From sequence record MH383160: a stretch of DNA of 64,000 bases; one strand, 5' to 3'. This document shows positions 13,390 to 35,644 of the stretch, one piece after another. The DNA comes from Escherichia phage UB. Every line of letters starts with the position of its first letter. Within the stretch, counting starts at the first letter, position 1. A program made the position numbers and the translations under genes. The notes under the pieces are model-generated. The model made no database searches. It worked only from the letters and a program-made list of their open reading frames with translations, and was not told where the DNA came from.

Positions 13390-13824
13390 CTATTTTTTAT
13401 ATTTTAAAATTAAATCACTCACGGCTTTCATTAGCTTATATGGAATAGCTAATTCTTGAACAGTACTTTCCATAAAATGTTCTTCTTCTGTATCATAAAA
13501 TGTTGAACTAAAGTGTTCACAATCATCTATACTATCATAAAAAGAAGACGTAAGTTTATCAACAATGACAGTGATTTGTTTGTCAGTTTTGGCACATCCT
13601 ACCTGAACGGTTAATCCAATATCATCAGCCTCTACACGAATTATAAACGAATTATTAGTATAGTTCAGCCAACAATCTTCACCAAAGTATACAACACTGT
13701 GTTTCTTCTGAAATGAAGTTGCGGTGTTAAGAACACCAATAACAACATCAACTGTTTTTTCATTTAAAATATTAGACATTTTTATTCCTGCTTCGTATGT
13801 TTCGTGAAATCTCAAATATTCCAT
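13390..13824 (-). CDS. Member of C-terminal EExFFQxS-motif paralogue family (divergent)
   Basis: C-terminus TEEEHFMESTVQELAIPYKLM; start probably internal to the listed ORF. Confidence 0.4.
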   Translation of the reverse strand: MEYLRFHETYEAGIKMSNILNEKTVDVVIGVLNTATSFQKKHSVVYFGEDCWLNYTNNSFIIRVEADDIGLTVQVGCAKTDKQITVIVDKLTSSFYDSIDDCEHFSSTFYDTEEEHFMESTVQELAIPYKLMKAVSDLILKYKK

Positions 13825-14200
13825 TCAACTGCTCAACAGTTAAACCCTGTAAATCGTAAACTGTTGATAGTTGAAAGAACATCTCTGAATCTATAGTATC
13901 ATGTTCAATTGGAAGACTCAAGAGGTCTTTATTAATAAAATAATCATATGTTCGAATTGTCAAAGAATCACCAAAGATATCAATGTAAAATTTCGGAACA
14001 TTATGTAACGAAACATCTATTAATATGTTTTCAGCATATCTACAAGAAATTTTAGAATTATTTTTATAAGATTGGTATGAAAAATTATAAGGTTCATCGA
14101 CCGATGTGTATGATGAGGTATCACCTTCGGAAAATATTACACCACATTCAATAAGATGTGTTAACGACTTAGGTGGAATTTTTAACATTTCACTTCCCAT
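13772..14200 (-). CDS. Member of C-terminal EExFFQxS-motif paralogue family
   Basis: C-terminus SEMFFQLSTVYDLQGLTVEQLNGIF. Confidence 0.55.
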   Translation of the reverse strand: MGSEMLKIPPKSLTHLIECGVIFSEGDTSSYTSVDEPYNFSYQSYKNNSKISCRYAENILIDVSLHNVPKFYIDIFGDSLTIRTYDYFINKDLLSLPIEHDTIDSEMFFQLSTVYDLQGLTVEQLNGIFEISRNIRSRNKNV

Positions 14201-14618
14201 GCTTACTCATATTACTACGGATCACCCCACTAAGAAAACATATTTTCCTTAATGTATCATAACTGATATTTGTAAGATCATGTACAAAATTCAACTGCAA
14301 GTACATTTCTTCAGTTAATTGATTAAATGTATCATCAACATGAATGTTAGTATGTTCCGTTATATCTATTTCTATATTATTTTCCCAAATATCAATGCTA
14401 ACAGCATAGTCTGATGTATGTCTGGATTGAACTGAAATAAAAATATTATTACTGTTGTATAATGTCTCTGTGTATCCATTCAAAAATGATCCAACGACAA
14501 CATCAAAAATGCCATCTCTAATTGGGTTTTTTGTTTCAAACGTATCACTACAAACTTGACGGTATACAATGTCAACATACTTATCAATTAAAGTAAACAA
14601 ATAACTCATTGCATTCAC
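14190..14618 (-). CDS. Member of C-terminal EExFFQxS-motif paralogue family
   Basis: C-terminus TEEMYLQLNFVHDLTNISYDTL. Confidence 0.5.
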   Translation of the reverse strand: MNAMSYLFTLIDKYVDIVYRQVCSDTFETKNPIRDGIFDVVVGSFLNGYTETLYNSNNIFISVQSRHTSDYAVSIDIWENNIEIDITEHTNIHVDDTFNQLTEEMYLQLNFVHDLTNISYDTLRKICFLSGVIRSNMSKHGK

Positions 14619-14626
14619 CTATATAA

Positions 14627-14657
14627 GAAAAAAGGCCGATTCATCGAATCAGCCTTA
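14627..14657 (-). terminator. Intrinsic terminator (minus strand)
   Basis: Minus-strand hairpin AAGGCTGATTCGATGAATCGGCCTT followed by TTTTTTC. Confidence 0.5.
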
Positions 14658-15328
14658 AGTATAACACAGTAGAAGTTAAAAAGTCAACTTCTAAATTACA
14701 GCATCCAAGAGGAATAAAAAGATACTGTTAGAGGGTAACGAATATAATGAATTTGAGGGTAATATCATTATACGTAAAAAAGTGATAGCTTCTATACATA
14801 AGGAGGAATCAGTACTGACTAGAAGCTATCGGGTTAAACGATTTCAGTACTGAGTGTTTAGTTTAGGATGAGTATTTCCATCTTCGATTTGTTTTAGAAT
14901 CGAGTCACGAATTTCTACTGCCCCTTGATAACTATATTTATCTTTTGGGATCACCCATGTATATTCGCCATCAGTGGTTTTAAAATCAATACATGGATTA
15001 TCCCTGTATTCAGATGCAATGATTGCAATAACATGTAATGAATTCAATGAATGATTTGTATAAGGATAATTGTTATTATCTCTGAACGTGAATGTTTTAA
15101 GTTCATCAGGTGCAACAATGAATTCCATTATTCATCCTCGTACTTCTTGAATGGTGGAACATCTACCTTGAAGTCTTTGCACATCTTAGTTGTACGAACT
15201 TCAGTATTGTTGTGATAATTTTTCTTAAATTCATAAGAAACATAATTACGAATACCAGGTGTATGAATAATAGCAAGAACCAATGTACGACCAAACAAGC
15301 ATAATAAATTCCAGAACATATGAATCTC

Positions 15329-15694
15329 CTAATTGTGGGTTTTAACCAAACGTGCGACAGCTAGTATAGCATTAACCTCATCCAATGTCAACCCACCAAT
15401 GTCATTAATCATTGAGTACTGAAATAGTGATTCTTCAGTGTAATTGTAATCATGAGAAGCAATAAAGATTGCTGGTTTAGATGCATCCAAAATTATCTTT
15501 GTCATTGTAGTATATATATCAAATTGATACAATAGATTTTCACCTGTATATGCTACGTAGATATTATTTGAATAGGATGGATGTACCATTGTAAAACCAT
15601 CATAACATAATATTTTTATGTTCGGATCGTCAAAATTGCCTGTATAAAGGTTATTACAAACATCTTGCATTATACGTACTATTAGACTAGTCAT
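15329..15694 (-). CDS. Member of C-terminal EExFFQxS-motif paralogue family
   Basis: C-terminus TEESLFQYSMINDIGGLTLDEVNAILAV. Confidence 0.55.
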   Translation of the reverse strand: MTSLIVRIMQDVCNNLYTGNFDDPNIKILCYDGFTMVHPSYSNNIYVAYTGENLLYQFDIYTTMTKIILDASKPAIFIASHDYNYTEESLFQYSMINDIGGLTLDEVNAILAVARLVKTHN

Positions 15695-16112
15695 TTAAAG
15701 GATTTAGAACCTCTTCTGGAATCAACTTTTGAACTTTAAGTATAGCTTTAATGTCCTCAAATGTTAATCCTAATGTGTCGTTAAGGAGGCAGTACTGGAA
15801 GAATTTTTCTTCAGTATCAATATCGTTAACATTCAATTCAATTGATTCATCATCATAATCATAATCTTCATTATCACATTCATAACTTCTGAATATAACT
15901 TTTTCAAAATACACATCAAATGAATAAAAATGATTATTGAATTCATAACCAAGAAAAATATTAAAACATTTACTCAAATCTGTGGTTTGATTCAAATCTG
16001 GATCATAGCAAAATACTCTAACTTCACCAATATCTTCTAATTGTACATCATGCAGTGACCATGCGTTGTTTTTTAATACATAGTTCACCATTTTAACAAT
16101 GTTGTATGTCAT
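15687..16112 (-). CDS. Member of C-terminal EExFFQxS-motif paralogue family
   Basis: C-terminus TEEKFFQYCLLNDTLGLTFEDIKAIL. Confidence 0.55.
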   Translation of the reverse strand: MTYNIVKMVNYVLKNNAWSLHDVQLEDIGEVRVFCYDPDLNQTTDLSKCFNIFLGYEFNNHFYSFDVYFEKVIFRSYECDNEDYDYDDESIELNVNDIDTEEKFFQYCLLNDTLGLTFEDIKAILKVQKLIPEEVLNPLND

Positions 16113-16118
16113 AGTGTA

Positions 16119-16208
<90 letters not shown>

Positions 16209-16229
16209 AGAAGTAAGATAACCAACAAG

Positions 16230-16393
<164 letters not shown>

Positions 16394-16436
16394 ATTGACC
16401 TCTTTAGATTAAAACCCCCAGTTTTCTTCTTGAACC

Positions 16437-16955
<519 letters not shown>

Positions 16956-16967
16956 TTATAATACCTG

Positions 16968-17413
<446 letters not shown>

Positions 17414-17414
17414 T

Positions 17415-17452
<38 letters not shown>

Positions 17453-17453
17453 A

Positions 17454-17521
<68 letters not shown>

Positions 17522-17522
17522 A

Positions 17523-17558
<36 letters not shown>

Positions 17559-17588
17559 CGGTAATCATCAATATCAATTTTAGTTTTG

Positions 17589-17643
<55 letters not shown>

Positions 17644-17656
17644 TATATCATGTGAA

Positions 17657-17903
<247 letters not shown>

Positions 17904-17904
17904 A

Positions 17905-18041
<137 letters not shown>

Positions 18042-18065
18042 GTACTATTTTCGGAAAAAACCTTC

Positions 18066-18100
<35 letters not shown>

Positions 18101-18436
18101 CGGAAACACATTTTCATATACTGTTCGTTTCTGGAATTCATCTGCTTCATCAGCACATAGCTTGAAAGTAATGTATTCAGTACTTAAACTATTTACTATA
18201 TCTCGTAACGTAGGATATTTTAGTTTTTTTATTTCTTTATTTTCTTCTAATGATTCAAAAACAATTTCGTTATCATTAATAATAAACGATTCATCGTTCT
18301 CATTAAAAACACGGATTTCTGGGTTATCATCACTCCAATTTTTAGAAGCTTTAGATGTTAATTTGGAATTTAAAAATGATTTAAGAAACTCTTCATACTT
18401 TGAAATGTCTTTAACACTCATATACCCAACTTTAAT

Positions 18437-18497
18437 TAAAAAAATGGATGGTGACGCTTTTAAACGCCGCTGTTAATTCAGCTTTATAACCATCCGT
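18437..18497 (-). terminator. Putative intrinsic terminator with long hairpin
   Basis: Minus-strand ACGGATGGT ... ACCATCCAT arms followed by TTTTTTTAATT. Confidence 0.35.
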
Positions 18498-18499
18498 TT

Positions 18500-18775
18500 T
18501 AACTTGCCTTTCGGCTACCTTGACGTGGGGCGTACAGGCTGCTAAAAGCAACTTCTGTAAACATATTTCCACGCCTTACCCTTTTAAATAAAAGTCCATC
18601 CGGTTTTCCAGTTTGGTGAAGGACTGTCACCTCTAGTTTCAACCTGCTAGTCAAGTAATAATTGCCTATCGTCCAATTATCAAACCCGTCTAGGTTAACA
18701 TTCACCACTTCCTAGAGTACCAGAGATCTTGTTCTGGATAGCATCGACGTAACTTACACCATATACGTCTGATTG
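18500..18775 (-). ncRNA. Candidate small non-coding RNA inside the tRNA cluster
   Basis: GC-richer ORF-poor segment between an extended -10 promoter (TGATATAAT at about 18781-18795) and the terminator at 18437-18497; the only listed ORF has no RBS. Confidence 0.25.
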
Positions 18776-18800
18776 TGGAATTCATTATATCAGTACTGAA

Positions 18801-18992
18801 CTATTCATCAGTGCTCAAATAAATTGTATCAGTTTTACATTTATACTGAATACGATGATCAATAAACGTACCTTGTTTATAAAGATCTGCATTTTTTACA
18901 TCAGTAATGATTTCAACACCAACATATTGTTTAAAAAGAACTTCTGCTTCTGGATATTGTTTAAGAATTTTAATCAAATCTTTAGCTTTCAT
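18801..18992 (-). CDS. Small protein, MKAK(E/D)LIK N-terminal family (63 aa)
   Basis: N-terminus MKAKDLIKILKQYPEAEVLF. Confidence 0.45.
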   Translation of the reverse strand: MKAKDLIKILKQYPEAEVLFKQYVGVEIITDVKNADLYKQGTFIDHRIQYKCKTDTIYLSTDE

Positions 18993-19022
18993 TTAATCCC
19001 ACTCGTTTATGTGTTAAGATAC

Positions 19023-19229
<207 letters not shown>

Positions 19230-19232
19230 GTT

Positions 19233-19390
19233 CGTACCATTATTTCAATAAAGAACCACGGATACGCTTCATGGTTTATAAGTTTATCGTATTCTGCTGG
19301 GTCTGACATGATTTCCCAATGATACTTTCTCCAGTTACCGAAACCTGCATATCTAAAATTAATGTCATTCATCCATTCTTCATGCGTCAT
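19233..19390 (-). CDS. Small protein, MTHEEWM family (about 52 aa)
   Basis: Manual translation MTHEEWMNDINFRYAGFGNWRKYHWEIM.... Confidence 0.4.
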
Positions 19391-19441
19391 GGTTTTAACC
19401 TTTAATTAAAATTATCATAGGCATAAATTTAATTACTATCA

Positions 19442-19984
<543 letters not shown>

Positions 19985-19998
19985 AATATTATATTTTA

Positions 19999-20070
19999 TA
20001 AAGGGCCGGAGAATCGAACTCCGATTGGATTCTTAGAAGGAATCTGTTTTATCCATTAAACTAGCCCCTC
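19999..20070 (-). tRNA. tRNA-Arg (anticodon TCT)
   Basis: D-arm GTTT-AATGGATA-AAAC; anticodon stem GATTC/GAATC with loop CTTCTAA; T-arm CGGAG-TTCGATT-CTCCG; acceptor has two G-U pairs. Confidence 0.65.
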
Positions 20071-20080
20071 AGTACTAATA

Positions 20081-20108
20081 ATTATATCACATCTTTATGT
20101 GATGTCCA
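20081..20108 (-). promoter_or_regulatory. Sigma-70-type promoter upstream of tRNA-Arg (TGGACA-N16-TATAAT, extended -10)
   Basis: Minus-strand TGTGATATAAT lies 11 nt upstream of the tRNA 5' end. Confidence 0.45.
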
Positions 20109-20673
20109 ATTATTTATGATTCGGTTTCGGGATTAAATTTTATAAATTCATCTTTATATTCATCTTCAATCGCAATATCTTCTACTTCTTCAGGCCAAAT
20201 CGTAGTGTCTCCTTGATAAAAGCGATAATTATCAAATACTGCACTACGCGTTCTTCCCTGTTCCCAGCCAATCGTACAGTCATGATATACATCCCCACTA
20301 CTTGTACGAATACTAATGGTGTCTTGAGTTTCATAAAGAACTTCAATGCGTGTGTTACGATTTACGTTGAATTTTTCAAAATGCATAATATTATCCTCAT
20401 CTAGAACCAGTGATAATCATTATATAATGAATTAATGATTTATGCAAGTGTTTTAGATACACCGACACCAATAATTCCAGTGATATCGATATGGATATTG
20501 GCAAGTTGATTACTATCATATGGGTTTGTTTCTGTAATAACCAATGTTGTATCATTGACTAAAACCACAGTACCTTTTACACGATAACCATGTAGTAGTA
20601 CTTGAACCTCATCTTCAGGTTTTAATGATTGAATAACTTCAAATAAAGTTGTTTCCATTTTTGTATTCCTTGT

Positions 20674-20874
20674 TTAGTTTTGATTATTTGACTTTCTAAA
20701 TGCCAGTTCGCATATAAACCAGGGTTTTCTGGTATCCAAAACATATGACCTGAAAAGATTTTCATCTCTTAATATATCATAATGTACCTGACGAATGCCA
20801 TTCCCAAAGCAGTCATGTTCTTTATGCTGTTTGGACATCCATTCTTCGTGTGTCATTTTATGTATCCAGTACAA
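20674..20874 (-). CDS. Small protein, MTHEEWM family (66 aa)
   Basis: MYWIHKMTHEEWMSKQHKEHDCFGNGIRQVHYDILRD...WFICELAFR. Confidence 0.5.
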   Translation of the reverse strand: MYWIHKMTHEEWMSKQHKEHDCFGNGIRQVHYDILRDENLFRSYVLDTRKPWFICELAFRKSNNQN

Positions 20875-21091
20875 TTAAGTGCTGCATCTCTTCTTTTGTA
20901 AAGAAAGCACTGTCATGAACAATAGAACCAGTCTTATCAACTACATAGTACAGGTTTCCATATTGTTGAACATCAATTCCGTCAATTTCAATTCGTGGAA
21001 AATTTTGGACAATACAGTCTGCACCGAAAACCTCACCAAAAAAGTTTCCTGCTGGATTGATAATGACTTTCATATTAAATCACCTTTATTG

Positions 21092-21193
<102 letters not shown>

Positions 21194-21198
21194 TCTTA

Positions 21199-21393
21199 CT
21201 ATTTTTTGTCTCTAATAGCAAGCTCGTAGATGAACCAGTGGTTGGAATCTTCGTCCAAAACCAATGATTCGAACGTTTTTTTATCGTTCAAAACATCATA
21301 ATGGCCTTGGCGTATACCAAATCCAAAATGATCATGTTTATATTTTAGTGACTCTATCCATTCTTCATGTGTCATTTTATGTATCCAGTTCAA
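21199..21393 (-). CDS. Small protein, MTHEEWM family (64 aa)
   Basis: MNWIHKMTHEEWIESLKYKHDHFGFGIRQGHYDVLND...WFIYELAIRDKK. Confidence 0.5.
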   Translation of the reverse strand: MNWIHKMTHEEWIESLKYKHDHFGFGIRQGHYDVLNDKKTFESLVLDEDSNHWFIYELAIRDKK

Positions 21394-21455
21394 TTAAGTG
21401 TTTCATTTATTCTTCTGTAAAGAAAGCATTGCAATGGACAATGGAAAAGGTTATT

Positions 21456-21633
21456 ATATTTTTTTGTCTCTAACCGCAAGCTCATAGATGAACCAACGAT
21501 TTCCATTCTCATCTAGTACATATGATTCGAACTTATATTTGTCTCGTAAAATATCGAAATGACCATCAATAAATCCATTTCCAAACTGGTCATAACGTTT
21601 TTTCATCATTGCCATCCATTCTTCATGTGTCAT
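21456..21633 (-). CDS. Small protein, MTHEEWM family (59 aa)
   Basis: Manual translation MTHEEWMAMMKKRYDQFGNGFIDGHFDILRDKYKFESYVLDENGNRWFIYELAVRDKKI. Confidence 0.4.
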
Positions 21634-23716
21634 CTCTTAATATCCATAACGGCTATACTAAAATATGTACCAAAATCATCACAATTGATAATGTTGTTAT
21701 AGTACTCAATTGGGTTACGCAATGATATATACAATTCAAGCTTAAAATAGTATATATCTGCTGCATTTATATTATAGTGTAGATTAAACCACTCATCAAA
21801 TGTCTTAGGCTGCATTATATTTATCTTTATAAAAATCCATGATTTTAGTCAACAGTACTGCAATCGTATAATCTAAATCAGGATAAAGTAAATTGTACTG
21901 AAATTCTTCCTCAACACTATAGTTAGTGGTACAGTACTGGTAATCTTTATAACCTATTGAAAAATAATTCGGATACAATGTACAACGAAAGCGATAAGCT
22001 TCATCTGTCATATAATCATTGTATTCAACACAGAAGTATAGTGATTTTGAATTTAATTCGATAAGCTCAACGAATCCATCAGGTAATGAATGGTTATAAA
22101 TTACTGAATCTTCATTAAACCATTCATAGTATTTTTCCAAAAAATCACTAATGGATACATCCAGACTTTGTATAGGTGGAGTTATGATAATTTGAACTTC
22201 TTTATTCATTTCGACCCCTTACTATATTTCACGTATGGGCTATCATACAGATCATAACTTTTTTGTGCACGTTCTTTTCGGCGTTCATACATGATTCTAT
22301 CATACTCTTTAGCTTTCTGATTTGCTTCATTATACAATTTTAAAATTAGCAAAAATGCATCAAGATCGGGATAGTTTACTGGATTGATAGTACTCAGCAT
22401 AAATCGTTCTTCTTCAGTTCTAGCTAAGTCAAATTCATACTTAATAGTTTTATACCCACTCCATTTATATATATGCGTTACTTTATTAGTAAGTACATTA
22501 TATTCAACGAAGTCAGTACTACCATCAAGTACACGAGTAATCTTAATAGATGTACCAATGACAATCTGCACAGAACTCATTTCTGAAGTTTTAAAGTAAT
22601 AAATGTTATTACGGCGAAGATTAACTTCTCGATCTCCAATGCGAACATGCTTAATAACTTCCATTAATGGTTCTGGGACACCACGAATCGGCATGTTAGT
22701 ATTCCTCAATAACGGTTAGGAATCTATCCCAACCAGTATAAGTGAAATGATCAAAGTATTGTTTTTCGCCACCTACCATATATACTTCAATTAAACCGTG
22801 GTCGAAATAATTTTTTGGTTTTTTAACTTCAGTTACGATTGCTTTATGTCTGAAACCATTATAATCAGTATATGTTACAATATCGTGAATTTTGATATTA
22901 TCAGGTGTATAAGTGTTGGCGTTATTATTGAGAACATGAAGATGATGGTCTACGATTTCTTTACTGGAAATTACTCCAAATATGTTACCAGAAAATACTT
23001 TATTACCATTACAGGTCAATGCCCAGCCATCACCAACTTCAATAGATTCAAATACATAATGTGTGCAAATTTTAGATACATCTGACGTATCCCAGTAATC
23101 ACCATCAAGATTGGTGAATTTATAAACAGTTTTGAGTTTTTCGCCATCAAATGAAAGCAATGATACTCCGATAACAACCGTTCCGTCTTTAAGAATAATA
23201 TTAAATTTATTATTTGTATTAAAGTATGCTTCTGACTCATATGTGTTGAATTTAATAAAGTTCATATGTTCTCCTTAGTAAGTCATAGTATTATATCAGA
23301 GTTTCATTGCACTTACCAGCATGTTTTCATAACTTCTGTGATGTAAATCATTTTATCTTTTAGTGTGTAAGGGATGCAAATTTCACCTGGGCTTAACGTT
23401 GTGTTCTTTTGAAACTCATCTTCTTCGGAATCAGCCAGGTAAAATGGGTGTGTCACAAAGGTATCATCAACTGGACGATTATGTGGTTTCATTAATGCAT
23501 CATGATTGACAAAATAATAAGCATCAATATCAGGACGGAAATACAAACAATCAACCTTAATGCACGGGTGTAACCATAAGGACAAAGAATATGTTATTTG
23601 GTTACCAATTTGTCTTGGGCCTGATGCAATTGCATTGATGTTATTTTTATCTTGTACCATTTCATAAATGAAATCTATCATTTCGTGTAGTTCTGATTCA
23701 GTCATTTTATTTCCTT

Positions 23717-23746
23717 AAAAAAATACCCAGTACTTGACTGGGTATT
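23717..23746 (-). terminator. Intrinsic terminator (minus strand)
   Basis: Hairpin ACCCAGT-ACTTG-ACTGGGT flanked by an A/T run. Confidence 0.5.
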
Positions 23747-25086
23747 TACAAAGTAACGTTTAATCAGATTTCTTTTCGTAATCTGTAAAAACAGTCAGGA
23801 TTGTTGCACATAGTGAATCAACTACTGATGCACGTGTGTTATCAAGGTCTTTAGCTAGTGCTTGAATCTCTTGAAGTTTTACTACTAAGTCGATTTTTTG
23901 ATTACTCATTACTTCTCCTATTGGATGTTTTTTAGATATTAATTTTTATACCACTAAGGTCTAGAACTTTTTTATTAGATACTGTTTCTGATTCTAATTT
24001 AGTTTCTTTTACCTCAGTGTTAATATTTACGTCATCTTTGAGAATATCAGGGATAATACCATGTTGAATATCATCGTACATAGAAACAACGGTTTCGGCA
24101 CAAGATAACATTTCACGAACTTTGTACTGATAACCCTGTGGTAACTCATTGATGATTTCCATAATATCTAGTAATTTAGTTTGGACATCAATAAGAATTT
24201 TTCTTGATTTTTCTGGTTCCATTACTCCAACTCCACAACATTACTTTTTTTGGATTTAATCACTGATGGTGGCTCATTAACGCTTGTTTGACCACGAAGT
24301 GATTTTTCCAACGCAATGATGCGTTTTAAAGTTTTTATTGATGGTCGCTTCTTCGTCAACTCAGCTTTTGCTTCTGAATAATATTTTCTTACATATCCAT
24401 AGGCATAATATTTTGAACCAATGAAAATTTCAGCAACTACTGGATTTGAGTATTGTGTATCAATTCCATCTAGATCCGTGTCTACCGAGTAGAATGAAAT
24501 ATTTGTATCACATGCTGAAATTTTAGCCACCAAAAGATTTGCATCGAACTTATCTAAAATTAGAGAAATTGTTTTTTCGGCATCAGCACTATATGGCATA
24601 GCAGACATTAAAAGTTGGAATGTCTTAAAGTACTTACTTCCACTAATCATGGTATTGAAAATCAATCCAATGGTGATTAATGCAAGTGTACCAATACACA
24701 CAAACAAAAACCAATATTCAACACTCATTTATAAATCCTCTTACTTTATATGATTAAAATGCCCCATCAAAAATGATGAGGCGGTAAGATAAATTACTTA
24801 CGATTTGCTTTACGCAGTTCAGATAGTTCTTCTTGAAGACTTTTCTTCCATGCAATCAAGTGAGCAAAACGGATTGGCCTTGCACCAGTACCGTGGAATA
24901 CTGCTAGAGCTTCTTCTGCTTGATGAATCTGGAATTGAATGTAGTTCACAGTGCGGTCGAAGTCGGTGATATCTAGTACTTGTGCGTTAGTTTCTTTAGC
25001 CATTTTAATACCCTTTTATTTCTTTTTTATGAAAAACCCTCATCATTGAGGAATGGTTTGCATTTTAATATCTGCCGATAACAAAC

Positions 25087-26980: not shown

Positions 26981-27553
26981 TTAATCGTTTCCATTATTAT
27001 CCTTCAATGTGTAGTGTAGTACATCTAAAAAGTTATACATTGATTCATTACGCACAACCTTGATTGTTAAATTACGACAACCCAACATACGTTTGAGGCG
27101 ACGCTTCACCGCAGTTAAATCATGTGTACTATTCGTATACAGACCATTAACCTGACCTGGAACAGTTGGCACATGAAGAATGTAATCATAATTCATTAGT
27201 AAGCGTTGATTATATTTCTTTAATGCTTGCTTGTATTCTGAAATATTTTCAAAGAATGTACAATAACGGTCGTAACGATTCATTTTATTCAAAATTGAAA
27301 TACGAAAAGCGTTACCACTATTCCAATCATCTTCAGTTGGGTTTGGGTTGATATGTGCCATGTTAGCTGTACTGTACCCACCACTTGTGAAAACTTCAGA
27401 ATATCCATTCTCAAAAACATACAATGTTGCTTTGTGGCCTCTGAATTTTTTACGGTACTTTGACAGTACTTGAATGTGATTACGCTTGGACTTGTACATC
27501 TCGTAACCTTCATAATCTGAACTGAATTCACAAATTTTATCAACACCAGCCAT
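26981..27553 (-). CDS. Hypothetical protein (190 aa)
   Basis: ORF with GAGGA RBS and consensus promoter immediately upstream. Confidence 0.5.
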   Translation of the reverse strand: MAGVDKICEFSSDYEGYEMYKSKRNHIQVLSKYRKKFRGHKATLYVFENGYSEVFTSGGYSTANMAHINPNPTEDDWNSGNAFRISILNKMNRYDRYCTFFENISEYKQALKKYNQRLLMNYDYILHVPTVPGQVNGLYTNSTHDLTAVKRRLKRMLGCRNLTIKVVRNESMYNFLDVLHYTLKDNNGND

Positions 27554-27585
27554 TTCGTATATCCTCGTTTAATTAATATAGGAGT

Positions 27586-27614
27586 ATTATACATACTCCA
27601 TTTTCATGTGTCAA
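27586..27614 (-). promoter_or_regulatory. Consensus sigma-70 promoter (TTGACA-N17-TATAAT)
   Basis: Both hexamers are perfect consensus on the minus strand. Confidence 0.6.
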
Positions 27615-28084
27615 GCTTTATAATACGGAAGACTTTTTACTAAAGATTCAGACGTATTATTTTTTACCCATGTACTACCGTTGTCATTAGATACGTATCC
27701 AGTACCATTAATAAATTTACGCATAATACCAGTAAAAATATTAGTATACACCATTACTCAGTATCCTTTGGTTTAGAATGTAAACCATACTTTTCATCAT
27801 AACGATCATAGGTAGTACCATTAGTACTAGCTTTGATGCTTTCAGTACGATTGATTGGTTCAATCTTAACACCACGATAACCAATCTCTTCTTTAAATTG
27901 TTCCCATGATTCACGTAGACTCATTTTAGCCCCTTTTGTTATTTCATACACTCACGTAGGTCAATCTTTTCTACTGACCCACCGAGTACTAGATAGTGAA
28001 AATTAGAATCTTTGTTTGCCATATTCAAAAGATCTGCTTTCTGTTGAAGCGTAAAGCGTGAAGTACTGTTACGTACTGGCATAG

Positions 28085-28528
28085 TTACTCCTTAAAGTAG
28101 ATATCACGAATTTGTTTAATCATCTCTAACTCTTGAAGTCCTATCATACCAAAGTCTTCTTGTATTGTCAACTGCTGAAAGTACATTTCTTCTAAATTAT
28201 TGTACGGAATCTCAACAAGATTCAAAGGCTCACTTTCCACACGATAAATTGTATCTTGTACATCATGTTTTTCGATATGAATACTAAATGTATCTTTTTG
28301 AATTCTAAATTTATAAAATGTTTGATTTGTTGTAAACAAACCAACTTTAGGATGGAATCCCATTTGAATACACAAACAATCTTCATCCTTATATTTCAAG
28401 TATATAGCTTTTGACGTTGCTAGTACTTTAGATTTTGGGAAATAAAAATCACCCATCAGCTTCTGACGTTTCCAGTCCTCATATACAACTGGATGCTTAA
28501 CCTTCTTCAATTGGTGCAGTACTGTCAT
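28085..28528 (-). CDS. Member of C-terminal EExFFQxS-motif paralogue family
   Basis: C-terminus LEEMYFQQLTIQEDFGMIGLQELEMI. Confidence 0.55.
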   Translation of the reverse strand: MTVLHQLKKVKHPVVYEDWKRQKLMGDFYFPKSKVLATSKAIYLKYKDEDCLCIQMGFHPKVGLFTTNQTFYKFRIQKDTFSIHIEKHDVQDTIYRVESEPLNLVEIPYNNLEEMYFQQLTIQEDFGMIGLQELEMIKQIRDIYFKE

Positions 28529-28907
28529 AGTTTTTTCCAGTCCAATGAATCGAAATCGATTTGTTCAGGATTATCAACAGCGACAACTCGTGCATTATGA
28601 AGAGTTTCAAAGTAGCCGTTCCACGGTGTACGTACTGGAATTTTTTCATCTCCAATTTTTACAAAGAAAGAGAATTCACATGACATTGGATCAAACCATT
28701 CTTTATGTTTGGCTTCATCGATTATTGTCGCACGTTCGTTACTATATGCATCATCGAGTTTCTTAAAGAATACCCAATGCTCTTTCAAAGACTGTAATGC
28801 TACAACTGCCTCATCCTTTGATTCCCATTGAACATCCAATGTATTGGTAACTGAATCTTCAGTTTCAGTGTCCCCTGTAGTGTAATGTACTTCAATGCTG
28901 TATTTCA

Positions 28908-29363
28908 TTAATCATCGCCTTTTAGTAATTTACAAATTTCAATCATATGATAATAACATGTATTCCAAAATTGTCCATTAGTACTTCCAACATCATGCAC
29001 AGTACTTTGTTGGAAAACATATTCATCGTTGAACATCATTTTAATATCATCAATGTAAAATTCTGGTTTTGAATCATTATTGTATTCAATACTCGTTTCA
29101 CCATCTGGATCAAGTGAAATTGATGATATGTCGTGAATTCCTCTCGGATTTGTTGGATAAATTCTCAACGTAAGAGGATAGAAGTCTGGATCGGTTTCAT
29201 AAGTATATTCGATTATGTAATAACCATCACCAGTAATTGATTGATATTTAAATGTAGTTTCAATTGAATTTGAGATGTTAAATCCCAGTTTCTTTATCTC
29301 ATCTACATGAGATAATATTTTATGTAAAGTTCCTAAAACATGAATCAAATTATCAATTTTCAT
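28908..29363 (-). CDS. Member of C-terminal EExFFQxS-motif paralogue family
   Basis: C-terminus NDEYVFQQSTVHDVGSTNGQFW. Confidence 0.55.
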   Translation of the reverse strand: MKIDNLIHVLGTLHKILSHVDEIKKLGFNISNSIETTFKYQSITGDGYYIIEYTYETDPDFYPLTLRIYPTNPRGIHDISSISLDPDGETSIEYNNDSKPEFYIDDIKMMFNDEYVFQQSTVHDVGSTNGQFWNTCYYHMIEICKLLKGDD

Positions 29364-29902
29364 TTACGAACCTTTGAAAAGTTTAGTTTAAAAGATTTAC
29401 CAAATTCCATTGTAGCTTTACCCAGATTGTTAATATTTTCCTTTAACATTTCTTGCATCTTATTCATACTTTCAATCCAAGCTTCTTCTTCGATACGAAG
29501 AATTGGTCGCAATCGTTCCTGAATATCGATAAAACGTGTATTGAGTTCTACTAATGATTCATATGTGAAATCTTTCATGTCGATAATAGTACTTCGTTGA
29601 AAGAATTCTTCTTCGGATAAATTACTTAAAATGATTTTATCACGACCAATAGATAATGTCAATTCATCATCTTTATTTTTTTTAATTACAATACTAACAG
29701 GTGTTTTTAATGTAATGCAAATATCATGATTATTAAATGTTTCAGTTTGGTTTGACATTCTGAATTGAAGTTTCCCAGATAAAGCATGTACTGGTGATGG
29801 TTTCTTTTTACCAGTAATAACATCTTCCCATGAATCGAGAATATTATTAATAATTTTAACATAAGGAATTGGCATATATGCACCTATGAAAAATCCACGC
29901 AA
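29360..29902 (-). CDS. Member of C-terminal EExFFQxS-motif paralogue family (with C-terminal extension)
   Basis: SEEEFFQRSTIIDMKDFTYESLVEL. Confidence 0.55.
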   Translation of the reverse strand: MRGFFIGAYMPIPYVKIINNILDSWEDVITGKKKPSPVHALSGKLQFRMSNQTETFNNHDICITLKTPVSIVIKKNKDDELTLSIGRDKIILSNLSEEEFFQRSTIIDMKDFTYESLVELNTRFIDIQERLRPILRIEEEAWIESMNKMQEMLKENINNLGKATMEFGKSFKLNFSKVRK

Positions 29903-30399
29903 TGCGTGGATTTGTAATTATTCAAGTATAGTAATTTCAATTAAACGAATTTCGATAAACTCGTTTTCAGTTTCCCATGACGTGCCAAATTTCTTTTCAA
30001 GTTCAGATTTCACATCACTTTTAAATTTTCCCATAGTATTAGGAATAATTTGTTTGGTTAATTTGTCGTAACCACAATAAAACATAGGTTTCTCCCTTCG
30101 AGATATTAGCTGAACAAAATCTTTTGGATATGCAGGTATGTTATGCATCACTTCATGAATACACTCAGTACTTGAATCTTGTACTTTGTACATTACATTA
30201 AGTTTACCTCTGAAATTTGCGGTCATATCAACAATAGTTCCTTTACCCGATTTAAGTAAAGTTCCATTCTTTGAATGAGAGCAATAAAATACCTCATCAC
30301 CAATATTAGGATAATACAAATTAAATTCTAATTCAGATTTTACAGCCAGCCGTTTGAAACTTTCTGTACGTTTTATATAAGTTTGGTATTTGTTTATGT

Positions 30400-31260
30400 T
30401 CAAAAGAATATCTCTCTTAGTAAATGTGATATAACTGGCATAGTCCATCCATTCCCAAGCATTTTGTATGCTTGTGTCTTACTAGACACTTTAAAGAAAT
30501 CTTCAGGAACACCCTGTAATTTACAACATTCTACTACACTTAAGTGTCTATAGTCAATATTTCTTTTGCCATTCTCTAATAGATATTGACGACTGATCAC
30601 TGGGTCACGAAACACCAATTGTCGTCTGGATTTATTAAAGTACTGGTTACAATCACCACCTTTAAAATAGTTAGCATCTATACAGTACGAAGCGGTTCTG
30701 TCAGTGTACCAACCATCTTCAATAATATCTTGAAGTTTAGGTGCATTGGATAATGCAGGTGGTATAAAAAGCTTATCAGTACTGTACCAGTAATATCTCT
30801 GCCTGAAGTGAGGCGTATAATGCTGGGAGTTTATCAGTACTGGCGTGATTCCTAAAATACTATTAATGTATTCTTTGAAATCTTCTTTCATTTTAACATT
30901 TTCAAACAGAAATTTCAAGTTAGGATTAAGACTTTTGATATGATCAAAAATTTCAACCATTACTAAAAATAACTGCCCACGTATATCATTTAAACCACCC
31001 TGTTTACCTGCAACTGACCAGGCTTGGCATGGGAAACCACCCATTAATAAATCTATTTTGTCCCACTCAATATCCCATTCTCTCCACTTAGTTACATCAC
31101 CCAATTGGATAATATCAGGAAAGTTAGATTGAGATTCAGCTATTGCGTACTTATCAATTTCGGATGAATAATATTTTTCAACTGGGATACCAGCATCTTG
31201 CAATGCCATATATCCCACACTCATTCCATTAAAAAGAGAAAGTACTCGGATAGGTTTCAT
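30400..31260 (-). CDS. DNA (cytosine-5)-methyltransferase (286 aa)
   Basis: Motif I-like LSLFNGMSVG; motif IV GGFPCQAWS; motif VI FLFENV; motif VIII-like QHYTPHFRQR; C-terminal LGNGW. Confidence 0.75.
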   Translation of the reverse strand: MKPIRVLSLFNGMSVGYMALQDAGIPVEKYYSSEIDKYAIAESQSNFPDIIQLGDVTKWREWDIEWDKIDLLMGGFPCQAWSVAGKQGGLNDIRGQLFLVMVEIFDHIKSLNPNLKFLFENVKMKEDFKEYINSILGITPVLINSQHYTPHFRQRYYWYSTDKLFIPPALSNAPKLQDIIEDGWYTDRTASYCIDANYFKGGDCNQYFNKSRRQLVFRDPVISRQYLLENGKRNIDYRHLSVVECCKLQGVPEDFFKVSSKTQAYKMLGNGWTMPVISHLLREIFF

Positions 31261-31917
31261 ATAAAATCCTTTTTATATTGTTAAGGTACTATAATATATT
31301 ATAGCATCTTATTTAGAAATCTTCCAAACTTTTTTCATCACACCATCGTGATGTACAGATGATTGCAGATGCCAGAATTGAAGCACTTGCACGTCCTCCA
31401 CCGAGTAAGTACTGGCTAATTACGCCAATCATATTGAACACTTTATCATACTCGGTTAGTTGTTCAAAACCTTTCTTCCAATGCTGATATTCTTCTTCTG
31501 TGACATTAAACTCACCATCAAGTTCCTTTAAAATCTTTTTAAGCACAGCACTATGTTCACTCATCATCATCTCCATATCGTTCGTCATAAAAATCATCAT
31601 CACGATCTAATGGTTCTTTTGGCTTTTCAGACATATATTTCCTCACATGGTAAAGGTATTATCACCATCCATATCTTCATCAGTTGCTTCAGCTAATGTC
31701 TTGATTGTAAGTAATCCACGCTTCACGTACAACATGAAGACCTTTTCATAATTACCAAACATAATCTCAGGTGACATGTAATTCTCTGTTACAATGACGA
31801 TTGGACGGCCCTGTGAAAGCATACGAAACATAGTACGATATTTGTCAAATGTGCGAAATTCATCCATGTTCATCATGTGGCGTTTACGAACTACTTTAGT
31901 CATCTTAATACCTTTAG

Positions 31918-32358
31918 TTAATTGAACTCTACTTCTGGATAATGATTATAGAACATCTCACGAACTGCGTCAAGATGTTCTTGAAATTGTTTTATATCTT
32001 CTAATGATGGTGCATCAATAACAGTACTAAGTTGAAACAACGATTCTTCTGTGTTATATAGTGACATATCAAATGAGTTATTGTTGTCATCAGTTATGAT
32101 ATTATCACAAATTTCGTATGTGTCAATACAAACATCATCAAGTGTTGTATTATCATATACAGTGTATACGAATACAAAAATAAAAGAAGAATGTTCTTTA
32201 CCATAACGCGGTGGGTCATATGTCACATAGCATTTGTGGTCAAATGTATCGAGTTCCATAGACACCACCCCAGCTTCACGATATTCATTAGTTTCACTGG
32301 TAAGATCCGGTATTGATGTTATCGAAAGTAAGTGGAGAAATTTACTTGGATTTAGCAT
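31918..32358 (-). CDS. Member of C-terminal EExFFQxS-motif paralogue family
   Basis: C-terminus TEESLFQLSTVIDAPSLEDIKQF. Confidence 0.55.
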   Translation of the reverse strand: MLNPSKFLHLLSITSIPDLTSETNEYREAGVVSMELDTFDHKCYVTYDPPRYGKEHSSFIFVFVYTVYDNTTLDDVCIDTYEICDNIITDDNNNSFDMSLYNTEESLFQLSTVIDAPSLEDIKQFQEHLDAVREMFYNHYPEVEFN

Positions 32359-32813
32359 TTCACCACCATTGGATTTTGCGACTGTATATTAAAAAGGGAT
32401 AATACAAAAGTACTCAATTTTTCGAAACAATCTACTAATACATTTAACTCATCATAACTAACACCAATTTCACGAATAAGCGATTGTTGAAAGAATCCTT
32501 CTTCGGTTAACGTTAAACTACTAACCTCAGTTATGTTATAATAACTTTGGGATGTTGTGGTTGATATTAGTTGTATTGCAATCGTATCTGATGTTGTGTT
32601 GTACAGATATAAATATTTTGTTTTTCTTTCCAATGGATCTATACATGAAAGATCGATCATGTCATAGGTTTTTCCAATAAAAATATTACAATCATCTGAC
32701 AATTCACAACAAATGCGTATATGTTCTTTCGGGTCATGAACACGTTGTGTGTCAAATTCACATGACATTGCAATTTCAAAATGATTTTTTATTTCGTCAA
32801 CATTCATCTGCAT
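32352..32813 (-). CDS. Member of C-terminal EExFFQxS-motif paralogue family
   Basis: TEEGFFQQSLIREIGVSYDELNVLV. Confidence 0.55.
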   Translation of the reverse strand: MQMNVDEIKNHFEIAMSCEFDTQRVHDPKEHIRICCELSDDCNIFIGKTYDMIDLSCIDPLERKTKYLYLYNTTSDTIAIQLISTTTSQSYYNITEVSSLTLTEEGFFQQSLIREIGVSYDELNVLVDCFEKLSTFVLSLFNIQSQNPMVVKC

Positions 32814-33181
32814 CCACCATTAATTCTTATATTTGTATAGTTTAATGCTTTTTTAATAATACCAATTTCTGTAATTCCTATTACATTTTTCTCAATCAAT
32901 GACAATTGGAATAGTTCCTCTTCGGAAATATCAATACTGTGGATTCTTGTACAATAATCGTTGAAGTCATATACATATCGTATTGTATAGTCGTTTATAG
33001 AAACTGATACAATTGCAATCCCATCATGGATGTAAGTTAGTTCATTTGAGTATCTATTAAAAATTAACCTATCTGGTGAACCTATTGGTAGTTGAAATGT
33101 ATTTCTAGTATCTTGAACAATAACAAAATCATCATCTATATTTTTACTCAGAACACCCAAAATATCATATATAGTAGTCAT
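32804..33181 (-). CDS. Member of C-terminal EExFFQxS-motif paralogue family
   Basis: SEEELFQLSLIEKNVIGITEIGII. Confidence 0.5.
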   Translation of the reverse strand: MTTIYDILGVLSKNIDDDFVIVQDTRNTFQLPIGSPDRLIFNRYSNELTYIHDGIAIVSVSINDYTIRYVYDFNDYCTRIHSIDISEEELFQLSLIEKNVIGITEIGIIKKALNYTNIRINGGCR

Positions 33182-33182
33182 G

Positions 33183-33587
33183 TTATTCTTTACCTTCAGC
33201 AGTTCTGATAATTTTCATAACTTCTCTGGATAGTGCGTATATTTTTTTATAGTACTCAAATGTAACTGAACCAAAATCATTAATAGTACTAGCCATGAAG
33301 AACGATTCTTCTGTATATAGTTCATTTGACAAAGCAACCAGTTCTTGGTGAAATTTTGCGTCCTTCCAATAACGAAATTCAAAAACAAATTGTCCGTCAT
33401 GACCGACTCTACAACATTCAGAACGATCACTGTCTACACAGCTAAACACAATATCCCTTTCAGAGTCGTACCAGATATTTCCAATATTTGTTTCAATAAC
33501 AGCATAATCAATTTTTTTAGAATTTGGAATTAAACCTTTTTTCACCAGCACTAAACTGGTATTATCAATATCTAGTAAACTTACCAT
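33183..33587 (-). CDS. Member of C-terminal EExFFQxS-motif paralogue family
   Basis: TEESFFMASTINDFGSVTFEYYKKI. Confidence 0.55.
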   Translation of the reverse strand: MVSLLDIDNTSLVLVKKGLIPNSKKIDYAVIETNIGNIWYDSERDIVFSCVDSDRSECCRVGHDGQFVFEFRYWKDAKFHQELVALSNELYTEESFFMASTINDFGSVTFEYYKKIYALSREVMKIIRTAEGKE

Positions 33588-33588
33588 A

Positions 33589-33999
33589 TCAATTCCCCAT
33601 TACTAAAGTGTTTTTAATCTCCAACAATTCACTATACATATTCTTCAATTGTAATATATCTTCAAAAGTAATACCACCAAGATCATCAACTAATGAACGT
33701 TGGAATAAAGATTCACTTGTTTGTAATGTATCTAAATCGGTGATTTTTAATAAAGAACTTGGATTAAGTGTTTCGACTAGTAGTATGTTTTTGTATGGTA
33801 CATATGTGATCTTGATGTTCTTTTTATAATTAATCTTATAAAATCGCATAATTGACGATTCATCACTTAGTTGGATAATTGGGTCGTCTTGTTCATTAGA
33901 CCACCATACAGTACTAGTCATATGATTGACGTGGTGGTTCAATTCTGATATGTCCAAATCTAAAAAATATTTTAGTTCATTGTGTAAATCTAAACTCAT
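33589..33999 (-). CDS. Member of C-terminal EExFFQxS-motif paralogue family
   Basis: SESLFQRSLVDDLGGITFEDILQL. Confidence 0.55.
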   Translation of the reverse strand: MSLDLHNELKYFLDLDISELNHHVNHMTSTVWWSNEQDDPIIQLSDESSIMRFYKINYKKNIKITYVPYKNILLVETLNPSSLLKITDLDTLQTSESLFQRSLVDDLGGITFEDILQLKNMYSELLEIKNTLVMGN

Positions 34000-34054
34000 A
34001 AATTTATCCTCAATGCAGCATCATCATGTATTGTAGGATAAACCCACAATAATG

Positions 34055-34450
34055 TCAAGATGTGAAATAATTATACCAGTAATATAGTTCTTTTAATTCT
34101 TCAGTACTGAACAATACTTCTTCTATTGTAGATTGTTGAAAGTGATATTCATCATTTAGATACATAGAAATATTACTATATACTTTCCTATTGTATTGAC
34201 ATAAAAAAGAAGTTTTTTGATTAATGTATTCAGTAAATGTTAATTTATCTAACTCAATATCGAATGATAATTTAATAATATGACTATTATCATTTACATA
34301 CATTAGTTTCTTTGAAAAATGATCAATTGTAATATATTCTTTATGAGAGAACTGAAATATATTATTAAATTTATTACCATTTGTGCTTCTAAATTTTTCA
34401 AGGTAATAAGAAAGTGGTTTAATTATTGAAGTTCCAATATTGTTCTTCAT
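34055..34450 (-). CDS. Member of C-terminal EExFFQxS-motif paralogue family
   Basis: NDEYHFQQSTIEEVLFSTEELKEL. Confidence 0.5.
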   Translation of the reverse strand: MKNNIGTSIIKPLSYYLEKFRSTNGNKFNNIFQFSHKEYITIDHFSKKLMYVNDNSHIIKLSFDIELDKLTFTEYINQKTSFLCQYNRKVYSNISMYLNDEYHFQQSTIEEVLFSTEELKELYYWYNYFTS

Positions 34451-34470
34451 ATATCCTCAATTTTAGATAA

Positions 34471-34496
34471 GAAAAATGCCCCGAAGATCGGGGCAG
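34471..34496 (-). terminator. Intrinsic terminator (minus strand)
   Basis: Hairpin TGCCCCGA-AGA-TCGGGGCA with flanking A5 (T5 on the minus strand). Confidence 0.55.
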
Positions 34497-34610
34497 TACT
34501 AAAATGATTTTGTACCAAAAGGGGAATAAGAACAAAATGAAAATATAATAACGCATCATTATTATGTAAGGGAGGAAAGTAACATGATATGTTAACCATT
34601 TCTGGTATAT

Positions 34611-35162
34611 TTATTTATCATTTAATTCTTTAAGTTGGGTTTGTATATCTTTAGTTATATTTCGAATTTTCTTAAAGCAATAAACACTATCGTCCAATTC
34701 GATTTTAAGTTCATGTGTAAATGCATACAGAAGTTCAGCAAATACTAAATCTTGACGCATCCAGTTTCCATCTTTATATAAAGTCATTACACAATATGGG
34801 CATTCACTATTAGAAGTTTGCTTTCCAATAAAAACACTTTGAATTGATTCATGCTTAAAGCCAATAAAACTTTCATTTATTTTTTTAATTTCAGTACTGA
34901 TATCGAATTTAGCACTGGTGTTGATTGCAAAAATTTTATTCCCACTTTCATCAGTATTGATATTGAGTTCAATATCACTACCTAGTTTACGTACTGCTAG
35001 AGTATAAAGAAGTAATTCATACATGTCGTAACTTGTTACATTACCATTTGGTGCAATTACATCAACACTAACACCGTGCATTTTTACTTCTGTATTAAAT
35101 CCATCTTTATCAGAAAGAAAATCAGTGATTTGCTTTGTAAGGATTTTAATTTGGTCTATCAT
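34611..35162 (-). CDS. Hypothetical protein (183 aa)
   Basis: ORF; no recognisable motif. Confidence 0.5.
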   Translation of the reverse strand: MIDQIKILTKQITDFLSDKDGFNTEVKMHGVSVDVIAPNGNVTSYDMYELLLYTLAVRKLGSDIELNINTDESGNKIFAINTSAKFDISTEIKKINESFIGFKHESIQSVFIGKQTSNSECPYCVMTLYKDGNWMRQDLVFAELLYAFTHELKIELDDSVYCFKKIRNITKDIQTQLKELNDK

Positions 35163-35215
35163 ATTTCATTTCCTTATGTGATAAAAGCCTCCATAATGGA
35201 GGCTTTTGTATTTAC

Positions 35216-35644
35216 TTAGAGAGATTCTTCGTATTCAGCAACAATCCCAACCATTTCATTAATGAACTTGATGTGAGAATGTGTCACTGTACGGAAATCG
35301 TAAACAAGTGACTGTTGGAAAAATACATCTTCATCAAGAGAACCATCAAAGTTCAAATCAATGTTTTCATCGTCATTGCTTGGTGCAACTTTAATATTCA
35401 GAAGATTTTCATCAACTGCAAGTTTTACAACACAACCCAGTGCAATGGCAAGAACATATGCTGGTTTCTTAGCTTTTTCATTACGGAATGGTGCACGTAG
35501 AGCACAAAAAGTACTGCTAATCTCATCATTCGGTTCTTTGTATTTAACATTGACCATTAGTTCTTCGATTTTGACGCTCTCAATAACACGACCAGTTTCT
35601 GGAGCGAAGAAAGAATGTTCACGGATAGTTTGTTCGATATTCAT
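35216..35644 (-). CDS. Member of C-terminal EExFFQxS-motif paralogue family
   Basis: DEDVFFQQSLVYDFRTVTHSHIKFI. Confidence 0.55.
   Translation of the reverse strand: MNIEQTIREHSFFAPETGRVIESVKIEELMVNVKYKEPNDEISSTFCALRAPFRNEKAKKPAYVLAIALGCVVKLAVDENLLNIKVAPSNDDENIDLNFDGSLDEDVFFQQSLVYDFRTVTHSHIKFINEMVGIVAEYEESL

Follow-up and report, generated by a model that had tools for sequence, protein, structure and literature searches.

The minus strand of a 64,000-nucleotide stretch of Escherichia phage UB DNA (record MH383160; hereafter the window) carries 19 small genes whose products share a motif of the form EE-FFQ-S near the C-terminus. Sequence comparison identifies them as members of an old, diversified paralogous family that is confined to the Rak2-like jumbo phages. 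Each member is predicted to form one compact alpha/beta domain of ∼120–150 amino acids (aa), of which the motif is a predicted integral helix-turn-helix and not a tag carried by unrelated proteins. We read the set, with moderate confidence, as an undescribed multigene family of single-domain, non-virion binding proteins diversified for host takeover or anti-defence. The functional part of this reading, namely that the proteins are soluble non-virion binders serving host takeover or counter-defence, is the most likely role but is proposed more tentatively. The window is 99.8% identical to Escherichia phage PBECO4 (NC_027364, 348 kb, Asteriusvirus) across 28–36 kb; ∼30 further jumbo coliphages match it at ≥95% and Klebsiella Rak2-type phages match it at 80–90%.

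An initial annotation made from the sequence alone had listed fifteen open reading frames (ORFs), five at 13.4–16.1 kb and ten at 28.1–35.6 kb. All fifteen were confirmed, motif included, but the total was too low: three clear members (21805-22209, 22206-22709 and 23313-23705) and a degenerate one (18032-18421, with the sequence DEADEFQKRT) had been overlooked, and the window holds 19 members. A hidden Markov model (HMM) of the 35-residue motif region, searched against the 253 window ORFs of at least 50 aa, retrieved 18 ORFs at expectation values (E) of 1e-15 to 3e-9 and none other. Among 20 shuffled versions of the ORFs the best match reached only E 0.022, showing that the motif stands out from chance in this AT-rich composition. 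Leave-one-out profiles recovered 14 of the 18 ORFs at E ≤5e-4 with zero non-members; the four that were missed are 14190-14618, 21805-22209, 23313-23705 and 28085-28528. The motif was said to lie 20–45 residues from the C-terminus, which is so for most members, but in two the distance is 69–84 residues. The view that the family is old and diversified, its nucleotide sequences not being near-identical, agrees with a mean pairwise nucleotide identity of 0.50 (maximum 0.71) across the 42 nucleotides of the motif. The conserved Ser is encoded by AGT as well as TCN codons and synonymous codons vary in the motif; this codon variation and the identity of 0.50 indicate that the motif is conserved at the protein level.

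A chance similarity, or a nucleotide-level element such as a repeat or recombination site, might be suspected in DNA of ∼32% G+C, as the codons for Glu, Phe, Gln and Ser are AT-rich. However, shuffled and reversed ORF sets gave no matches in the genome-wide scan described below, all members lie in the coding frame of minus-strand ORFs, Ser is drawn from two codon boxes, the ratio of non-synonymous to synonymous substitution rates (dN/dS, see below) is <1, and RaK2 orthologues retain the motif at 30% identity. The module-HMM and genome controls, together with the codon variation, refute this explanation, and its remaining probability is negligible.

The members had further been described as unrelated N-terminal bodies with a shared tail. 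Pairwise phmmer comparison of the pre-motif regions detects one related pair only, which explains this impression; however, the apparent unrelatedness is a limit of sensitivity, as profiles built from the pre-motif region alone recover held-out members. When such N-terminal-only profiles, to which RaK2 and phage A4 members were added, were searched with the tested similarity group excluded, held-out members were among the five best of ∼185 sequences in ∼29 of 49 cases, compared to ∼1.3 expected by chance. Alignments likewise run over the full span of the proteins: (i) 33183-33587 and its RaK2 orthologue align over residues 4–134 with 30% identity (tblastn E 2e-8), (ii) most matches in the exhaustive database search reported below span profile positions ∼2–125, beyond the last 40, and (iii) a profile built from 32 members lying outside the window (the second-cluster profile) found 13 window members and zero non-members, with alignments that take in the beta-sheet region.

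Two dissimilar members were modelled with AlphaFold2 from an alignment of orthologues and paralogues, the second being selected for its least-related-looking body. Model 1 (15329-15694; predicted local distance difference test score (pLDDT) 88.4, predicted template modelling score (pTM) 0.81) has helices at residues 4–15, 87–96 (the motif) and 104–118, with five strands within residues 26–79. Model 2 (35216-35644; pLDDT 78, pTM 0.77) has a short N-terminal helix, six strands and helices at residues 105–114 (the motif) and 122–141. The order of secondary structures is identical in both (helix, antiparallel sheet of 5–6 strands, helix-turn-helix), and BFVD targets from PBECO4-like and RaK2 phages are common to the two models. 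In both, the motif comprises the first C-terminal helix, the turn after it and the beginning of the last helix; the pLDDT of the motif helix is ∼83–93. The pre-motif profiles, the full-span alignments and the two models thus oppose the description of a tail on unrelated bodies. In the modelled hairpin, the Thr or Ser residues that precede EE and x-E-[DE] would be helix N-caps, with the acidic residues placed in the first helical turns; D-x-G would be the connecting turn, and the spacing of the aromatic and aliphatic residues would fit a face packed on the sheet. Residues with such capping and packing roles would make the motif the keystone of the fold.

The conservation of the motif lends itself to two other explanations. 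In the first, which refines the shared docking module suggested by the initial annotation, the EE-FFQ-S helix docks one conserved partner, such as a host hub (RNA polymerase, a protease, a chaperone) or some phage protein, and the variable remainder brings different targets; the ∼60 paralogues per genome would then be interchangeable adaptors whose variable sheets recruit host proteins to a single host or phage hub. If true, the set would parallel, in a phage, the expansions of F-box, BTB and ankyrin adaptors known from large eukaryotic viruses. The motif is indeed by far the most conserved part across ∼60 paralogues and 132 sequence clusters, including E, E, Q, S and D residues that need no burial, and the motif region has a lower pooled dN/dS (0.17) than the body (0.27). 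We nevertheless regard this explanation as unlikely, since the motif is predicted to be integral to the fold, unlike an appended module, most of its conserved polar positions appear to fit ordinary helix capping, and conservation of a structural keystone accounts for the pattern more simply.

In the second, E-E-x-[YF]-F-Q is a processing site at which a Gln-specific protease cuts off the C-terminal helix. The potyviral NIa protease of tobacco etch virus (TEV) recognizes E-x-x-Y-x-Q|(S/G), for example ENLYFQ|S, and the motif shares with this site the E at −6 (P6), the aromatic residue at −3 (P3) and the Q at −1 (P1), which are its most conserved positions. However, the conserved Ser falls one position later, at P2′ rather than P1′, and the residue following the Q is variable; the segment is helical in the models (pLDDT ∼90) and integral to the fold, and conservation runs 20 residues further. 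The Gln is replaced by Met in three window members, and no 3C-like or NIa-like protease is found among the annotated products inspected in these phages, in which no targeted search was made. Cleavage at the motif is thus very doubtful and the resemblance to the TEV site is most likely a coincidence.

We asked how far the family extends. Full-length MAFFT profiles (A1 and A2) used in a word-indexed protein search returned 28–38 matches, all close orthologues, and an exhaustive search was therefore needed. Profile A5, built from window members together with their orthologues and run with hmmsearch against 1.84 billion cluster representatives, matched 132 clusters at E ≤1e-3, all of 62–217 aa, and nearly all of the 126 newly found representatives, once inspected, show [TS]EE.[FY]FQ.S[TL][IV].D[FL]G..[TS][FY]E[DE]. 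All cluster members with a named source derive from genomes or contigs of ∼350 kb, namely those of Salmonella phages Munch, SE_PL and 7t3 and of Klebsiella phage fENko-Kae01, together with phage contigs deposited under E. coli or Salmonella. With tblastn, a consensus 35-mer matched 69 of 50,697 phage records; among the 60 matches listed, 58 are jumbo-phage genomes of 310–386 kb and the other two, of 86 and 94 kb, are partial. The host genera are all Enterobacterales (Escherichia, Klebsiella, Salmonella, Erwinia, Yersinia, Pectobacterium, Serratia and Cronobacter), with the exception of one Xanthomonas. PA5oct, a phage with RNA sequencing data, had no motif match by tblastn.

The number of copies per genome was estimated from phage ECO103 4-12-1 (OR844650.1), 98% identical to the window, whose complete genome was put together from eight loci for the scan. 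The window-derived profile identified 47 ORFs and a broad 228-sequence profile 59, with no match at E ≤10 in the controls (5× shuffled, and reversed). The 59 ORFs are distributed between 28–49 kb (20 members, the arrays of the window), 267–295 kb (32 members, a denser cluster rich in SEEYYFQQST), 198–213 kb (four members) and three single positions. Set against the 551 annotated genes of PBECO4, the family represents ∼9–11% of genes. At other loci, ∼22 members were found in A4, at least 12 in RaK2 (40 kb), and 2–3 tblastn places in CBB and GAP32. Two ECO103 4-12-1 members (14642-15160 and 33000-33353) have no counterpart among the window ORFs, and copy number therefore differs between phages that are 98% identical. 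Judged on its sequences, the set qualifies as a viral multigene family: it has many tandem paralogues, full-length homology, restriction to one lineage and a varying copy number.

Two further observations concern the arrays in related phages. In phAPEC6, about two dozen tiny ORFs of 65–85 aa (gp467c–gp489c, locus 28307-34506) adjoin the second family cluster; this run may be another tandem family and may correspond to the '>30 very similar genes' reported for phage 121Q. In Salmonella phage SD-1_S14 and related SD-* records (310–326 kb), small deletions and fragmented ORFs occur within the arrays, and these gaps could represent a real loss of dispensable genes or assembly errors. We considered the deletions as a sign of motif-mediated recombination and dropped this idea, the records looking fragmented (677 features in 310 kb).

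As the initial annotation had supposed, the motif does not correspond to a named domain, and no search of Pfam, NCBIfam or PDB sequences placed the proteins in a characterised family. In Pfam, none of ten members scored above the curated cut-off (best E 0.011) and none of forty-two members matched at E ≤0.01; NCBIfam returned scattered matches only (E ≥0.009), and A5 had no match at E ≤10 among 177,635 PDB sequences. Window members do match PHROGs (phrog_17453, 24941, 24510, 23322, 30841, 30548, 38573, 23719 and others) at E 1e-55 to 1e-118. These are the same proteins, split over many groups of unknown function with weak cross-matches only (E 1e-3 to 1e-6), and PHROGs does not record that they form one family. 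A full-text literature search for the motif strings gave nothing relevant.

The genes are under purifying selection, and hence functional, as seen from their comparison with phage TH47: dN/dS of 14 members ranged from 0.03 to 0.42, with a median of 0.225. The median was 0.15 for non-family genes (p = 0.09 versus the family), and replication and structural genes gave 0.02–0.09. The family also diverges fast. Its RaK2 orthologues, recognisable for 7 of the 19 members, have a median identity of 29% versus 54% for neighbouring genes, and its A4 orthologues 44% versus 75%. Fast divergence combined with turnover of copy number is thus indicated by the sequences. Both properties, as well as the tandem arrays and the degenerate members 18032-18421 and 23313-23705, could also be expected of neutral padding, in which tandem duplicates fill an enlarged capsid and decay without individual function. 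Hua et al. proposed duplication as a route of genome expansion, and a ratchet has been suggested for the enlarged capsid (PMC5646251). However, all 14 comparable members have intact reading frames and the low dN/dS given above, and orthologues are kept in syntenic positions across the genera Asteriusvirus and Alcyoneusvirus. We therefore consider neutral padding improbable.

The shared module had been suggested to target the proteins to the virion or the membrane. Jumbo phages package many internal proteins, and the distance between the motif and the C-terminus is similar in most members, as might be the case for a targeting or packaging signal. In phAPEC6, the two main clusters correspond to gp083c–gp134c and gp406c–gp466c, and none of the 62 proteins of its virion proteome comes from gp079c–gp148c or gp348–gp548 (PMC7247149). 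This exclusion covers the two main clusters, the seven scattered members not being mapped to phAPEC6 numbering, and makes virion targeting unlikely. Predicted molecular weights were also compared with the phAPEC6 virion list, but yielded coincidences only, the gene numbering already excluding the two main clusters. Membrane targeting is equally disfavoured, as the grand average of hydropathy of the 19 members is −0.64 to +0.08 and 15 of the 19 have an isoelectric point (pI) <5.5. The motif is moreover structured in the models and probably partly buried. A role as targeting signal is thus highly improbable. Acidity is general in the family (median pI 4.7–4.8): the median pI of the window members is 4.7, compared to 5.7 for other minus-strand ORFs (three members have a pI >7), and genome-wide 78% of the 59 members have a pI <5.5.

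In the reading that we favour, which keeps the host-takeover or anti-defence set proposed in the initial annotation, the proteins would be soluble cytoplasmic binders made before virion assembly. The conserved hairpin would hold the scaffold and perhaps serve as a shared contact surface, and each paralogue would owe its own target to the sheet and loops, which vary. Outside the motif, the domain has diverged almost past recognition by sequence. A CBB family member lies in a tRNA-rich block near a PrlF-domain gene, within a region that the CBB authors suspect to be involved in early host takeover because of its clustered RpoD-like promoters (PMC5259590). Several results weigh against this reading. 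In Foldseek searches, each model matched the orthologues of the other weakly (E 0.2–0.4). The polar residues E, E, Q and S are almost invariant, a sharper conservation than a pure fold keystone usually needs, which leaves room for a shared functional site. Positive selection across whole genes was not seen in pairwise dN/dS, nor does the family differ significantly from its non-family neighbours, so that an arms race is not demonstrated. Finally, a scan for sigma-70 promoters near the arrays found 66 sites versus 66.3 expected in shuffled sequence, and is thus uninformative on timing; a literature search for an Asteriusvirus or Alcyoneusvirus transcriptome found none.

The window members are listed in Table 1.

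Table 1. Members of the family in the window, with the profile evidence for each.
Feature	Position	Strand	Evidence
Family member, 144 aa (TEEEHFMESTVQEL)	13390..13824	-	module HMM E 1.8e-11; leave-one-out E 5.8e-5
Family member, 142 aa (DSEMFFQLSTVYDL)	13772..14200	-	module HMM E 3.2e-14; leave-one-out E 1.7e-8
Family member, 142 aa (TEEMYLQLNFVHDL), weaker motif	14190..14618	-	module HMM E 1.4e-13; N-terminal-only profile rank 1, E 1.5e-4
Family member, 121 aa, AlphaFold model 1	15329..15694	-	module HMM E 9e-15
Family member, 141 aa (TEEKFFQYCLLNDT)	15687..16112	-	module HMM E 1.4e-13; phmmer E 6e-12 to neighbour 15329-15694
Degenerate family member, 129 aa (DEADEFQKRTVYEN)	18032..18421	-	broad family HMM E 2.8e-15, profile positions 11-140; N-terminal-only profile rank 1; orthologues P0031-P0047
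Family member, 134 aa (SVEEEFQYNLLYPD), one residue fewer ahead of FQ	21805..22209	-	module HMM E 1.4e-9; N-terminal-only profile rank 2; second-cluster profile E 1.2e-4
Family member, 167 aa, basic (pI 9.3), Lys/Arg-rich C-terminal extension	22206..22709	-	module HMM E 4e-12
Family member, 130 aa (SEEDEFQKNTTLSP), weaker motif	23313..23705	-	module HMM E 1.5e-9; second-cluster profile E 7e-4
Family member, 147 aa (LEEMYFQQLTIQED)	28085..28528	-	module HMM E 4.7e-11; N-terminal-only profile rank 2, E 3.9e-4
Family member, 151 aa (NDEYVFQQSTVHDV)	28908..29363	-	module HMM E 1.2e-14
Family member, 180 aa, ∼50-aa C-terminal extension	29360..29902	-	module HMM E 1.3e-12; top window match of second-cluster profile, E 1.6e-8
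Family member, 146 aa (TEESLFQLSTVIDA)	31918..32358	-	module HMM E 3.2e-9; leave-one-out E 3.1e-6
Family member, 153 aa (TEEGFFQQSLIREI)	32352..32813	-	module HMM E 3.4e-13
Family member, 125 aa (SEEELFQLSLIEKN)	32804..33181	-	module HMM E 9.6e-10
Family member, 134 aa (TEESFFMASTINDF)	33183..33587	-	module HMM E 1.1e-15; full-length RaK2 orthologue
Family member, 136 aa (TSESLFQRSLVDDL)	33589..33999	-	module HMM E 4.3e-13
Family member, 131 aa (NDEYHFQQSTIEEV)	34055..34450	-	module HMM E 8.5e-12
Family member, 142 aa, AlphaFold model 2	35216..35644	-	module HMM E 5.5e-14

The array region has all its genes on the minus strand. In PBECO4 and phAPEC6 the family members carry the annotation 'hypothetical protein', except 13772-14200. 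This gene overlaps its neighbours on both sides; neither the PBECO4 RefSeq record nor phAPEC6 has an annotated counterpart, and it was probably missed by the reference annotations. The 3′ end of 13390-13824 differs between near-identical phages: the window protein ends in ...LILKYKK, whereas PBECO4 gp375 (P0002), 151 aa, continues as ...KYKKIGV. A Shine-Dalgarno-like sequence precedes 10 of the 19 first-start codons (background 13%), and several of the listed GTG or TTG starts are probably too far upstream. A terminator-like hairpin at 14632-14656 on the minus strand (an 11-bp stem followed by a T run), located between gene 14844-15128 and 14190-14618, suggests a transcription-unit boundary within the first array.

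The arrays are intermixed with six tRNA genes, a cytosine methyltransferase gene and a likely homing endonuclease gene. The tRNA genes (Thr, Asn, Met, Ser, Arg and Gly) lie at 16129-21171 on the minus strand, between family sub-arrays; the tRNA-Ser gene (17911-18002, 92 nucleotides) has the unusual anticodon ACT. Such interleaving of tRNA genes and family members is also found in RaK2, A4 and CBB. Within the tRNA block, a 174-aa ORF (19442-19966, minus strand) looks by eye like an HNH/NUMOD-type homing endonuclease and is a candidate for this function; the syntenic tRNA block of RaK2 contains an annotated HNH endonuclease. The cytosine DNA methyltransferase gene (30400-31260, minus strand, 861 bp) is embedded in the third array, and its homologue in phage A4 (A4 locus 22933-24831), at 1,899 bp, is extended or fused. 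Inside the arrays of RaK2 (locus 20401-20814) and A4 (20413-20823) there is a gene for Pth2, the archaeal/eukaryotic-type peptidyl-tRNA hydrolase; it sits between the orthologues of 33183-33587 and 32804-33181, a position at which the window has none.

The Rak2-like jumbo phages (PBECO4, 121Q, RaK2, K64-1, CBB, GAP32 and relatives) are being investigated for therapy and biocontrol, and >80% of their genes are without an assigned function. About a tenth of the genes can now be attributed to one family with a single predicted fold and a diagnostic motif, which turns ∼50–60 'hypothetical proteins' per genome, scattered over unconnected PHROGs, into one tractable problem. The family profile could seed a new Pfam family, and the two confident models could guide mutagenesis. 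For the growth of jumbo genomes, the arrays exemplify an ancient, still-active tandem expansion under purifying selection. Should the role in anti-defence or host takeover be true, the repertoire would be among the largest of its kind known in a phage.

Paralogue arrays in these phages were known in passing: 'nearly 10%' of RaK2 products were reported to be paralogues (PMC3622015) and 22 paralogous ORFs were noted in CBB (PMC5259590). These published notes, which concern partly the same phages, likewise describe tandem small paralogues of unknown function and read them as duplication-driven genome growth, but they run to a sentence each and leave the family, motif, fold, ∼50–60 copies and clade-wide range undefined. 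The family, its motif, fold, size and distribution are thus new with respect to Pfam, NCBIfam, PDB and the searchable literature. At the structural level, a close known system is the MAM33/p32/gC1qBP fold (PDB 3qv0 and 3jv1), which consists of a helix, seven antiparallel strands and two helices and assembles into a doughnut-shaped homotrimer; the Pfam searches gave no match to PF02330. The predicted fold of the family appears to be without a solved relative. In bacterial conflict systems, tandem arrays of diversified immunity proteins, such as those of the SUKH type, are known. Phage anti-defence and host-takeover proteins and SUKH-type immunity arrays resemble the family in being small, acidic, fast-evolving and non-virion, grouped in variable parts of the genome and subject to turnover of copy number. 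However, the searches gave no match to any of them in sequence or fold, and the ∼50–60 members per genome are far above what is usual for phage accessory proteins.

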